From positions 50,096,001 to 50,160,000 of the forward strand of contig NW_026889758.1 in assembly GCF_033153115.1 (NCBI RefSeq): a DNA stretch of 64,000 nucleotides. Direction: 5' to 3'. Positions 25,201 through 31,200 of the stretch are shown here, piece after piece; position 1 is the first letter of the stretch; each line of letters starts with the position of its first letter. This stretch comes from Saccostrea echinata. Lineage: Eukaryota. Position numbers and translations under genes: made by a program. Under the pieces are notes generated by a model. It was not told where the DNA came from. It ran no database searches and was given only the letters and a program-made list of their open reading frames with translations.

Positions 25201-28200
25201 TCTATATCAATGTGACTAAACATGGCTTTGTTGTTCCTGAAAAAAAGGTTTTAGAATTTTTTCCCCTATACATTCACATGCTAAACCCTGATAGTGCATG
25301 GTGGCCCATCCTACCCCTAGGGGGTCATGGTTTGATTGATTGATTGATTACGGTTTAACGCCGAGTCGGCTATATTTCAGATAATTTACCATTATTTTCA
25401 GATATTTTACCATTAGAAAACAAACATTTTGGACATGGTTTATTTCCGTAAAATAAAAACTGGTCAAAATGGCAGGGCGGACCTTAAAACGCAGTATAAT
25501 AAAAGGTCCGCCCTCTGTTTTTCAGATATCGTACTATTACTAGGCGAAAATTTTGAACAGGGTTTATTTTCGTAGCATACAAACTAGAGAAAGAGACAGG
25601 GCGGACCTTAAAACGCAGTATATTTAAAGGTCCGCCCTCTACTTTTTAGATATCTTACTATTACTAGGCGAAAATTTTGAACAGGGTTTATTTTCGTAGC
25701 ATACAAACTAGAGAAAGAGGCAGGGCGGACCTTAAAACGCAGTATAATAAAAGGTCCGCCCTCTGTTTTTCAGATATCGTACTATAACAAGGCGAAAATT
25801 TTGAACAGGGTTTATTTTCGTAGCATACAAACTAGAGAAAGAGGCAGAGCGGACCTTAAAACGCAGTATAATAAAAGGTCCGCCCTCTGTATTTCAGATA
25901 TCTTACTATTACAAGGCGAATATTTTGAACATAGTTTATTAAAAGTTATCGTAGCGGGGAAAAAAAACTCGTTAAAATGGCAGGGCGGACCTTAAAACGC
26001 AATATAATAAAAGGTCCGCCCTCTGTTTTTCTTTTTTCCCACATACATGCATCTCACTTACAAAGCAAAAATTATGGAAATGCTGTAAGTTCCTATTGGT
26101 TTTTTTTCTTTGTTGGTTCGTGTGTTTTTCCAGGGTAAAAAGATAATTAGGTTTTTAATTTTAGGATGGACGCTAAATTAACTTAGAAAACTCTTGGAAT
26201 GGCCTAATTGTGCATAAAAATTGCATATATACTACTTGTAGTAGTGTACTTTTTTTCATTTAATATGCTGACAAAAAAAACAAAACTTTAATGACAATTA
26301 ATACGTTTGCAGGAGATGTGTCTACTGTATTATATATCTATATGCAACCATAAACATCTGTCAGAAGGGACCAAGGATATATATTATTATTTAATTAGTA
26401 ATGTTGATGACGTGCAACAAGAGAACTATAACCCCCCACCCCCCCACCCCCATCACACACACATAAATAAAAAAGAAATAGCCGCTAAAAGTCGTAGAAA
26501 ATCTAATTTAAACCAAAATCAAAATAAATATAAAAAATATTAACAAAAGAACACGACTTGGTGGTGTTTTATGAATTTTTATATCAGTCACGATCTCAAC
26601 AGACACTTTCCTTTTTATTTTAGGGGGAAATACATGTCAAGTTGCTCTGTAAAACCCCTCTGTAAATAGTATGGGTGGATAAGATTCTCCCTAGTAAGAA
26701 GGTGGAAAAGGAGCAAATTCTGTACTGAAGCGTACTGAGTATTTCCTATGGTGCATAATAAAGCCGGGGTTGTTTCTTCCAAGCTCGCTGCATGTCATTT
26801 CCGAAATTTTGCATTGCATTTCCAACATTTTTTGTTTTCATTTTACAATACAATCAACACTAAGTCTAGTAAAAATACAAAGTTTAGTTATAAAATGCAA
26901 TAATTTCAATAATAAAACAATCAATTTTTGATCACCAAATTTTAATGCCCACTGAATTACATGTGTTTGAAAGCACCGAAAAACAGAATCCCCTCAACTT
27001 TGATTACTTTATTCCCTCAAACATAGTTTCTGTATGTCATAAATTCTATCTTAACCTTTCTGATCTCAAATTCAGTCTGATTATCTTGATTTGAAAAGAT
27101 GAACAAAAATTCACAACTTCCACTTACATGTGTCCGAGGATAAAATCATCATAAGATTCTTTTAAATAAAAGCAGAACTTATTATTTGGAAATCAATGAA
27201 TTATTCTTGATTTATTCTTTAATTTTTTTTAAAAGGGAAATTTCAATTTTGTTTTCTGTCACCGAGCAAAATTAACGTTTTTGAAATAAATAACTCTTTA
27301 AACATATTTTACTAAATTTGGACATTTATCTGTTAAATTCTCTATCTATTATCATTGTGTGTATATTATTTAGTTGATTGAATCTCATTCTCTTTGAAAC
27401 AGGATTAAGACATTCCAATTGACTTTAAGTGACGTGTCAAAAGAATTGATACTCGTTAGGTGTAAATGCCTCAGGACCTGTTAGTCTAATATCAATAACT
27501 TTGTTTATATAATTATTTAGCAATGTCTTTTATGTCCATTCCATCAAAGAAACACACCTGTCTATCAATTAACTCAGCTAGTGTCATAATTCAATTATTG
27601 TTTACTCTCTATCTTACAAAAAGCTATGTCCATTATACCTTCTTCAGTTTGGAGGCCCGATGCTCTACCGGCCACATCCAACTCGGTTAAGACTTGTAAG
27701 CTATTATTGAAATTTATGTTGATTGTTATTTACCATCGTCTATAATAAATTCGGAAACTTAATTTTACCAGTTCTTGGACTTTATATTGGAAGACCATAA
27801 GGAATACGGCACCTTTCTCGTTTGCATTGTATTACGGCCCCACAGCGCCGCTACTTTTTACCCGCCAACATTCCTTCTTCCCCGTTTACGCTAAACAACG
27901 GATATAGTCCAGGAATTACTTTTATAACTTTATAACCAAAATCTAACTGGTTATAATTGGTGATAGAATCGGGACGTTCCCCTCTGTGTTGTACCTTTCA
28001 CTACGCCAGCGACGTGTTCTACCCATGAGTTTAATTTCCCCAAACATCAACAAACCTCACGATGGACATTTACTTTCGACCAACGTGGACTTCAACAAAT
28101 TCCATTCAGCCGCGATATAGTTGCACCTTTAAGCATCCATCTCCGTCAGTGTGTTATAACTGTGGAAAGTATGGACACTATGCCAAAACCTGTCAATTTC

Positions 28201-31200
28201 CCCCTAAAAAGTCAAATTCAAGTAAACTGCGTGACGCAAATAGAATTCGTCATTTTCTGGACAGAAAACAATGTTTGAGAGAATTACCATTCTACAACCT
28301 CAGACAAACTGCCTTCCATAGATGTGTGGACATTACTTCTACCCTTCGATGTCAAATTTCAAGAACAAAAGAACAACTTAAAAACTCAACAATCAGAATC
28401 AAGGAACTGCTTCAGAAAGTGCAAACCACCGAGCAAAACTTTGAATCAACAAAGGAACAATTCATCTCCGTTCAACAAGAAAGTTCCGCAAAAGTCTCGC
28501 AATTAGAAACAAATATCCAAAACCTACAGAAAGCTAATCCGGAATTAAAGCAGGAAATAATCGATCTTAAGATAAAACTAAACAATGCAAATAAAAACAA
28601 TAAAATGACTTCAGACCGTGTATCAGAGCTTTCTGCACAGAATCAGAAGCAAACGGAGGAAATTTTACAGTTGTCAACACAGCTATACACTGCAGATCAA
28701 ACCATGAGAAGACAACAGTTTCGGTCAGAGGAGCAAGACGCCGACATCAGTAGTCTTCGCTTCCAAGTTGAGGGTCAAATTCAAGAGATCAATTCCCTAC
28801 GTTTCACAATCGACTCTCAAATTCAAGAAATCAAAAACCTCCGGAATCAAATCGACGACCAAGATCAGGAAATCGAAAGGTTAGAGGACATTATTGATTA
28901 CGAGAGACAAAACGGACCCAACCCTTACCCCGCGTACAACAACTTCCACGGACATTGTCAGTGCCAACAGTGCTCACCATTTTATTGAGGGTGTTCCTTT
29001 CTAAAACACGAGGACGTGTTTTCCCGGAGGCCGAAGGATATTATCACCGAGCAAAATTAACGTTTTTGAAATAAATAACTCTTTAAACATATTTTACTAA
29101 ATTTGGACATTTATCTGTTAAATTCTCTATCTATTATCATTGTGTGTATATTATTTAGTTGATTGAATCTCATTCTCTTTGAAACAGGATTAAGACATTC
29201 CAATTGACTTTAAGTGACGTGTCAAAAGAATTGATACTCGTTAGGTGTAAATGCCTCAGGACCTGTTAGTCTAATATCAATAACTTTGTTTATATAATTA
29301 TTTAGCAATGTCTTTTATGTCCATTCCATCAAAGAAACACACCTGTCTATCAATTAACTCAGCTAGTGTCATAATTCAATTATTGTTTACTCTCTATCTT
29401 ACAAAAAGCTATGTCCATTATACCTTCTTCAGTTTGGAGGCCCGATGCTCTACCGGCCACATCCAACTCGGTTAAGACTTGTAAGCTATTATTGAAATTT
29501 ATGTTGATTGTTATTTACCATCGTCTATAATAAATTCGGAAACTTAATTTTACCAGTTCTTGGACTTTATATTGGAAGACCATAAGGAATACGGCACCTT
29601 TCTCGTTTGCATTGTATTACGGCCCCACAGCGCCGCTACTTTTTACCCGCCAACATTCCTTCTTCCCCGTTTACGCTAAACAACGGATATAGTCCAGGAA
29701 TTACTTTTATAACTTTATAACCAAAATCTAACTGGTTATATTTCATTGCCGGAAAAGTACTTTATGATGATAAATGTCAGAGATGAAAATTTTAAAACGT
29801 CAGAAATGAAAACTACAAAATGTAGGGAATGAAATAAACAATATATTAAAAAAAAAAAACTCCGGAAATAAAATCCTGTGCTAGGCTCATTTTCCAAAAG
29901 GGGGAGGGGTCTTTAAACCTAAGCTCGTTTTTCCGGGACAAATATTAATGCGGGAGGAAAGTCTACAACATCAGTACTTTTTAAACTATTTTGACATGTA
30001 TTAGCATAATTTTGCTATACCCCACCCACCAATAATACAACAACACCATTTATAATCTTTTCCTTTTTGGGGGGGTGGGGGTGGGGTTATTGCTTAAAAT
30101 GTTCAACTCGATTGACTTTGGTTTGATTTTGCCAATTAATGCACATCTTCCTTAACCAGTGTTAACACCGGGGTAATATCAAGTAGAATGAAATAATCGT
30201 TAGTCTTGAACTGGATAAGAAACGATGGTTATAAAAACACGGGGGATATGCGACTTCAAGTTTCGTCAGGTGAGACAATAGGCCTACCCCCCAAAGCACA
30301 GACATGTTGTTTTAACAACAACGGGATAGGCTAGTACACCGTAACACAAGTCCCTGTCACAGTGACCCTCCAATTATTTTATAGTTAGGTACAATATGAA
30401 TCGTAAGAATTACGCATAATTATTATTAATAATATAATGAAATATCTTTCGAAAGATATGAAAATTCTTTTTGGGAAGTGGAAGTCGAACGTTGTTAGGA
30501 AAGAGACTGTAATGAAATGATCATTGTTGGACTTACGAACACCATATACTGAACAATGTGCCAGTGAAGGTATGCGTATTATATATATATGTATTTTTTT
30601 TTATTTTGCAATGATAAATTGATATCACTTAAACTATAAAAGACACGTGTCGTACATGATTTTCCCATAAGGGATCTTTGCATCTTTATATTTTTTGTTT
30701 TGTGCACTACCTGGGAGGTATGTACTACCATATGACTACGATAAGGAGCTAACAGTTAATCAGTGCTAACATCAAATTTTGAATAATTTTTTGATAGATA
30801 ATTTGAGGTTTTGTTCTGAGATATATCATGGTATTAGAAATAAAATTAATTAAAATTGGCTAACGAAATCCAGCAACTAGCGAGATATCGCAAGACTTGA
30901 TCCTTTTAGTATATATACAATGTACATACATGTACGTCCCTGGAACTCCATTTTGCTCGGAGGGACACCTTTATAACAACTATACCTTAAATTATTTAAA
31001 AAGATTAATAAAGCAAATTAATTTCGAATCAATAAAGGAGAAAAATCTGCATATTAAACCGAAGGCGGACCTTTTATTATAGAGGCAGGCCGGACCTTAT
31101 ATGTTATCGTATTAGGTCCCCCCGGACCTTTAACTGTTTAAACGAGGCGGACCCGTCCTCGATTTACTATAGAAAATCACAAATGTCGGCTGACCCCTAC

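Follow-up and report, generated by a model that had tools for sequence, protein, structure and literature searches.

A window of 64,000 nucleotides from the Saccostrea echinata genome (contig NW_026889758.1, positions 50,096,001 to 50,160,000, forward strand) contains at 27253-29744 a recently inserted retrotransposon of the long terminal repeat (LTR) class, non-autonomous and without capsid and enzyme genes. The sole open reading frame (ORF) encodes a protein of 308 amino acids (aa) in which a zinc knuckle inherited from Gag is followed by a long predicted coiled coil. On balance, the element is probably a hitchhiker in a cooperative complex of Gypsy elements, the 308-aa protein recruiting its own RNA to helper particles. 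The protein would oligomerise on the RNA of the element and coat it, and the coated RNA would then be brought to particles built by related complete Gypsies, the source of capsid and enzymes. The features of the element are as follows.

27253-27256 (no strand): left target-site duplication, TTTC, flanking the 5' LTR
27257-27955 (+): 5' LTR of 699 bp, starting TGTCACCGAG and ending GGTTATA
27956-27973 (+): AT spacer plus primer-binding site, the latter imperfectly complementary to the 3' end of alanine transfer RNA (tRNA-Ala)
28062-28988 (+): sole ORF, 308 aa, under purifying selection
28062-28193 (+): N-terminus, by alignment derived from Gag nucleocapsid, with FRPxW, a degenerate first knuckle and the CCHC knuckle at aa 31-44
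28215-28325 (+): basic helical domain specific to the family (RD..R...ELPF), aa 52-88, with no Pfam or PDB match
28332-28913 (+): uninterrupted coiled coil, aa 91-284, predicted to form a parallel in-register homo-oligomer
28746-28871 (+): three 14-aa (double-heptad) repeats, aa 229-270, in family A only
28908-29041 (+): last 134 internal bp at the 3' side; these and the LTR are part of the C56 chimera formed with an env-bearing Gypsy
29003-29022 (+): hairpin with an 8-bp stem and 4-nt loop, conserved in families A-D
29026-29038 (+): purine-rich tract 5' of the 3' LTR, likely the polypurine tract
29042-29740 (+): 3' LTR of 699 bp, starting TATCACCGAG and ending GGTTATA
29741-29744 (no strand): right target-site duplication, TTTC, flanking the 3' LTR

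The element measures 2484 bp. In agreement with the first-pass annotation, the LTRs (27257-27955 and 29042-29740) differ at one base, the TTTC duplication is intact on both flanks and the ORF nearly fills the interior, occupying 927 of the 1086 internal bases. The sole difference between the LTRs lies at base 2 (TG.. versus TA..) and need not be an age mutation, since it is a terminal variant present in both LTRs of other copies. The LTR termini of most copies are TA...TA (mostly TATCACC...GGTTATA) and not TG...CA. The 3' hairpin was found at 74 exact sites genome-wide, and no integrase was detected upstream of it at the 66 sites examined. No tRNA-like sequence was found within the window LTR, and an Rfam scan to E=1 returned one sub-threshold match to a small nucleolar RNA. 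A 1496-nt contig of run X1 spans 27772-29268 and run X2 spans the ORF; the two runs are putative RNA data, and expression of the element is accordingly putative.

The knuckle at aa 31-44 matched Pfam zf-CCHC above the family cut-off. The region aa 91-284 consists of heptads without a break, in which two positions are 57% and 63% hydrophobic and the remaining five 7-14%. The expected N-terminal knuckle, coiled coil of about 180 aa (here 194 aa) and 14-aa repeats were therefore all recovered. An AlphaFold model (31-sequence alignment, mean predicted local distance difference test score, pLDDT, of 81) comprised the knuckle, helices at 52-73 and 82-88, and a single helix of 194 aa at 91-284; no capsid fold was present in the model. 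Likewise, neither Pfam, the model nor Foldseek revealed capsid, protease, reverse transcriptase (RT) or integrase in the ORF, as the annotation had supposed. Foldseek returned knuckle proteins only, with none at E≤0.001, and the PDB sequence search matched only the knuckle; Pfam coiled-coil matches were all under the cut-off and were disregarded.

The N-terminal 55 residues aligned to the C-terminal nucleocapsid region of Gag from the local Gypsy clade with an hhalign probability of 96, and hmmsearch of the N-terminus against local Gag gave a best E of 3e-8, with a QFRP motif ahead of the double knuckle. By these alignments, the N-terminus of the protein is derived from the nucleocapsid end of the local Gag. 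The N-terminal position of the knuckle is explained by loss of all upstream Gag parts, capsid included. The ELPF domain and the coiled coil had no match in any Gag examined and no Pfam family above the cut-off.

Modeling of three copies yielded a parallel in-register coiled coil with a score of 0.66, compared with 0.15 for the best control; the runs had at least 79% of contacts in common and a pLDDT of at least 77. In calibration the three-copy mark was reached by 21/30 known pairs and 0/23 monomers, and among eukaryotes by 17/29 versus 0/30. The protein is thus predicted to self-associate via the coiled coil, the three-copy model not separating trimer from dimer. Of the earlier proposal of an RNA-binding oligomer, the oligomer is supported by this prediction and RNA binding is presumed.

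The segment aa 45-90 is basic with a net charge of +7, and the combination of RNA-binding module, oligomerisation and basic segment is the design of factors that coat RNA for export, stability or shielding from Piwi-interacting RNA. It is quite unlikely that the protein is such a Rev- or CERV-like or anti-silencing factor, with packaging left to cis signals; an export factor of the Rev/CERV type would be a nuclear protein on which the export of genomic RNA depends. This explanation accounts equally well for selection in cis and has a retrotransposon precedent in CERV of Cer1 (PMC10309623), although the architecture of CERV, as given in the available part of that report, differs. Furthermore, the element has no intron calling for special export, and the knuckle descends from the packaging domain of Gag.

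The genome searched was the 923-Mb S. echinata assembly. A protein search with the ORF found 71 matches; the identities of copies were 99, 78, 77, 66 and ~31%, and most copies are flanked by fresh direct repeats of 680-730 bp. The ORF copies lie between near-identical LTRs at unrelated genomic sites. In the LTR search 40 of 152 candidates were scored, every one at least 89% alike, so that the count is a lower bound. Solo-like LTRs numbered 15 among 30 loci, with an exact 4-bp duplication at 7 of the 15. For family A, to which the window element belongs, nine loci were examined; an exact 4-bp duplication was found at six of the seven with both LTRs resolved, and the LTR pairs were 99.7-99.9% alike at five. 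The protein and LTR searches bear out the proposal of a parasitic multi-copy LTR family, and the possibility that the element is single-copy is refuted by the 71 matches and the dispersed young copies.

Ratios of nonsynonymous to synonymous substitution (dN/dS), all calculated by the Nei-Gojobori method, were 0.18-0.44 in family A, with p≤0.002 in 19 of 21 pairs and the other two pairs near-identical. The window copy gave 0.31 against the 78% copy and 0.21 against the 66% copy. Family B ranged from 0.18 to 0.37 (p<0.05 in 8/10 pairs), and family C from 0.19 to 0.60 among the pairs listed (20 of 78), with 0.19-0.23 against its diverged member. The ORF is under purifying selection and not neutral; the values among divergent copies of family A refute neutral evolution. 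LTR exchange occurs between subfamilies, since LTRs 95-96% alike accompany ORFs separated by a dS near 0.95, and likewise internal regions just 79% alike. Positive selection was considered, because LTRs 95% alike go with proteins 66-78% alike, but it was rejected as dS is high and dN/dS low, and LTR exchange explains the pattern.

At least seven related families in the S. echinata genome share the design of FRPxW, one or two knuckles, RD..R...ELPF and a coiled coil, and have the tRNA-Ala primer site in common. When 1.84 billion representatives were searched with a profile, 150 rows were obtained. In a hand-picked subset of 55 single long matches (all 101-376 aa) the xPF motif was present in 53 and a double knuckle in 39. 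Named homologues were from Crassostrea virginica, Magallana gigas, Saccostrea, Mytilus coruscus, M. edulis, Tegillarca granosa and Argopecten irradians, the nearest being oyster proteins, and are all annotated as uncharacterised or CCHC proteins; LTR context was checked in the S. echinata genome only. Looking for longer fused forms among 6479 candidates yielded one unrelated plant protein, which is weak evidence of absence. The motifs are kept at 20-30% identity over four bivalve orders. The family is either as old in oysters, mussels, ark clams and scallops as its carriage there, or has spread among them.

These data also bear on whether the ORF is simply a deletion remnant of gag, a doubt raised in the first-pass annotation. 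Descent from Gag stands for the nucleocapsid end, whereas "simply" does not, since purifying selection acts on the protein and a conserved helical domain with a coiled coil has been added to it. A neutral gag remnant or a domesticated host gene would agree with the Gag-derived N-terminus, yet dN/dS is well under 1 in three families, the motifs persist across four bivalve orders and the copies lie between near-identical LTRs at unrelated sites. This explanation is scarcely credible, the dN/dS values and the distribution of copies having refuted it.

Chimeric insertions record encounters between family A and other elements. At C56:21.905-21.917 Mb a single CAAA duplication encloses a whole chimera with the env-bearing Gypsy H1, in the order left end of H1, family-A sequence (the terminal 134 internal bases and the LTR), AT, an 18-nt copy of tRNA-Ala, H1 gag-pol-env and H1 3' LTR. 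The family-A part is 99.9% identical to the window. The perfect 18-nt tRNA copy was found in none of nine family-A and none of ten other H1 primer sites seen, and is thus derived from a reverse-transcription intermediate; its position behind a family-A LTR is also the reason for ascribing tRNA-Ala priming to family A. An LTR followed by AT and a tRNA copy is the form of the plus strand during reverse transcription. Most likely, therefore, a family-A plus strand was transferred onto an H1 minus strand inside one compartment.

Further composites were identified. A family-A LTR is joined to the LTR of the pol-only element H4 within a single ATTA duplication. Three composites of a family-A LTR with the mini-element family D have the duplications TACT, ATTG (LTR inverted) and CATG; the last is one event afterwards copied to eight places, counted once since the eight chimeras have common flanks. 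A family-B LTR is joined via a tRNA copy to sequence of the env-bearing C20 at L250, where the far end, and hence the duplication, is out of view. Since chimeras lie under single target duplications, family-A complementary DNA (cDNA) likely shared particles with an env-bearing Gypsy, a mini-element and a pol-only element. A D-LTR/H1 fusion at C38 and a B/A composite at C37 were left uncounted, no matching duplication being in view. At L237 (C2:32.514 Mb), L259 and L246, LTRs of family C or its relatives run into a perfect tRNA-Ala copy, beyond which lies unrelated or inverted sequence; these are further fossils of plus-strand intermediates.

Several Gypsy families in the genome have primer sites of the tRNA-Ala type and, in each case where the two ends could be seen, a 4-bp duplication. 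They form a guild of gag-pol, gag-pol-env, gag-less pol-only, knuckle/coiled-coil and non-coding mini-elements that have the tRNA-Ala-type primer, the 4-bp duplication and similar termini in common. H1 and C20 are gag-pol-env elements; the C20 env matches Baculovirus F (E 3e-16), and the H1 env has 36% identity to it. The gag-pol elements are H2 and H7, and the termini of H7 (TATGACCGTGCA...CGGTTATA, with AT spacer) are closest to those of families A and B. Family D is a non-coding mini-element with internal ends like those of family B; copies at L197, L196, L204, L212, L216 and L220 have 750-bp LTRs, an interior of ~310-340 bp, and primer and 3' signals like those of family B. The expected autonomous Gypsy sharing LTR ends and primer-binding site was found in part: partners agree in primer and in length of duplication and have similar ends, but none of the families sampled has the LTR body. 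The env element of C56 was considered as the single helper and dropped when six further tRNA-Ala partner families were found. Helper Gypsy partners thus exist as anticipated, although not as one helper but as a guild that includes the gag-less pol-only clade.

The partners also bear on a view of the protein as a competitor that acts against helper Gag on helper RNA, by poisoning or outcompeting it, and thereby loads helper particles with parasite RNA. Nucleocapsid without capsid would be a natural dominant-negative, and internal deletions or damage to the left end are frequent in helper copies of this genome. Nevertheless, competition is very unlikely, as it does not need a conserved 190-aa rod and the helpers are still young and open-framed.

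The pol-only elements H3, H4 and H6 have open frames of 1595-1645 aa, protease through integrase, starting 200-400 bases past the primer site; neither upstream nor downstream of pol is there a frame of gag size. They form one clade (support 100/99) in an RT tree of 27 of 30 loci, L360, L368 and L298 having been left out for short RT matches. Loss of gag in this still-spreading lineage is old, since the three form a single clade, RT is just 58-60% alike and the frames are open. The LTR pairs are near-identical, and six copies of H4 have the same gag-less leader. The termini of H4 (TATCACC...CGGTCACA) match those of the guild. The clade was recorded at L305:2056-10000, L293, L295, L297, L361 and L368-L370; the "nogag" label of L371 means merely no match to five Gag queries. 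The H4 and H6 leaders share a splice-donor-like motif, and H3 and H4 have ~300 additional residues C-terminal to integrase.

Such a clade raises the alternative of a two-part, capsid-free retrotransposon whose halves depend on each other, the knuckle/coiled-coil protein replacing Gag and the pol-only clade supplying protease, RT, RNase H and integrase. In its elaborated form, which has the same low probability, the protein would act as a ribonucleoprotein or condensate resembling ORF1p, and ancient segments would replicate as ribonucleoprotein in bivalves, at times hitchhiking in enveloped relatives. The age and continued spread of the clade (three families and six H4 copies) agree with this view, as do the guild-type termini of H4 and its composite with a family-A LTR in one duplication; moreover, Pol made without Gag would need an RNA tether. 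However, LTRs of families A and B are also fused to capsid-encoding env elements, indicating that their RNAs enter ordinary particles, and the complete elements H7 and C20 match the termini equally well and could serve both halves. We know of no precedent for capsid-free LTR replication. We consider the two-part arrangement possible but unlikely.

In the preferred reading, a hitchhiker whose protein brings its own RNA to Gypsy particles, an RNA-binding activity, a bias towards the element's own RNA and access to helper particles are presumed. The protein of a non-autonomous element would stay selected only if it favoured the RNA that encoded it; preference for its own RNA is assumed because a protein acting only in trans would be expected to decay and because there are non-coding cheaters, namely family D. 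Several points weigh against this reading. RNA binding, own-RNA preference and contact with Gag or Pol are putative. One sublineage has a dN/dS near 1 across the first 55 codons, and the pairwise dN/dS tests are not independent of each other. The three-copy score, obtained from three copies only, may reflect generic coiled-coil likeness. The chimeras show that the RNAs met, not that the 308-aa protein was the cause. Finally, no complete element with a family-A LTR was found, the nine exact LTR-end/primer junctions being eight family-A copies and one chimera, and in the families sampled the candidate helpers match in termini and primer only, the LTR body being different.

To our knowledge, the protein-coding parasites of LTR retrotransposons known so far keep capsid. 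The window family keeps just the RNA-binding end of Gag, placed on a new rod. Plant TR-GAG and zebrafish BHIKHARI are reportedly reduced to a single Gag-derived ORF. The window ORF resembles those of gag-only elements in being single, intact and Gag-derived, though for the nucleocapsid end only; the protein consists of nucleocapsid joined to a new helical domain and a coiled coil, whereas BHIKHARI and TR-GAG retain other portions of Gag. The systems cited here are compared as described in the available portions of the respective reports. BHIKHARI-1/-2 are LTR elements with a Gag-derived ORF that keeps other Gag parts (PMC13269885). The window element works like the semi-autonomous members of wheat RLG_Wilma/Sabrina/WHAM, but those retain capsid Gag, whereas the window family has lost capsid and carries the nucleocapsid end on a coiled coil; furthermore, its protein family spans bivalve orders and its guild has a diverged pol-only clade (PMC9744471). 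RLG_Quinta, with RLG_Cereba, is likewise pol-less with an intact ORF, the primer site and LTR termini of its partner, and template-switch recombination (PMC11302176). Quinta, WHAM, Sabrina-SA and TR-GAG are defined by a capsid-domain ORF, unlike the window ORF. Barley BARE2, gag-defective with pol intact, is a precedent for H3, H4 and H6; its gag is disrupted and it has a close autonomous sister, whereas H3, H4 and H6 have no room for gag and form a deep clade (PMC9744471).

LINE-1 ORF1p is a retroelement RNA-binding protein with a coiled-coil trimer, an analogy only, as it is non-LTR and has another domain order and RNA-binding module (PMC5940361). Bivalve TRIMs (terminal-repeat retrotransposons in miniature; PMC6934838) and Helenus (PMC10886601) are Gypsy-dependent LTR elements, with 4-bp duplications in Helenus; they are under 1 kb and non-coding, in contrast to the 2484-bp window element with its selected ORF. 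The bivalve Helenus primers listed exclude tRNA-Ala, and the Helenus LTR has tRNA-like sequence that the window LTR has not (PMC10886601). In the available part of a survey of mollusc LTR elements (PMC6238403) the terms "non-autonomous" and "envelope" do not occur. The suggestion that the family is possibly undescribed is upheld, as no description of the knuckle/coiled-coil family or of the pol-only clade was found in the literature searched, which did not include subscription journals or Repbase.

With the deep gag-less pol-only clade alongside, the oyster genome presents an LTR retrotransposon divided among specialised components; the preserved reverse-transcription intermediates record which RNAs shared a particle. 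How non-cognate RNA enters retroelement particles, and whether LTR replication runs without capsid, are now testable. The env-bearing partner fusions may point to a way of spreading from cell to cell or from animal to animal.

H1 itself showed structural peculiarities. In seven of the eight copies with the 5' end seen, the first 41-55 LTR bases are inverted and joined to variable sequence: L133 (C1:36977707), L135 (C4:488623), L138 (C6:7330341), L147 (C17:7283359), L153 (C25:8968189), L155 (C25:21821313) and L061 (C56:21904939). An exact 4-bp duplication flanks all six copies for which the two ends were visible. Palindromic mini-insertions of ~100 bp, consisting of the inverted H1 piece alone with their own duplications, were found at L139, L143, L145 and L149. 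The arrangement suggests that H1 integrase cuts an internal, wrongly oriented site and that the host rejoins the ends. At C25:8.954-8.968 Mb (L115, L116) four tandem 3024-bp H1 LTR-gag units lie within a single 4-bp duplication.

Elsewhere in the window, a 124-bp unit with internal inverted motifs is repeated five times in tandem at 25395-26031, with related pieces near 31056-31099. A 431-aa ORF at 39138-40433 (+) gave a weak DUF659 match only (E 0.053); from its motifs we take it to resemble a hAT transposase. An exon-like frame at 276-680 (-) contains a DSDGDG..NG.ELG motif, presumably that of molluscan temptin-like proteins.

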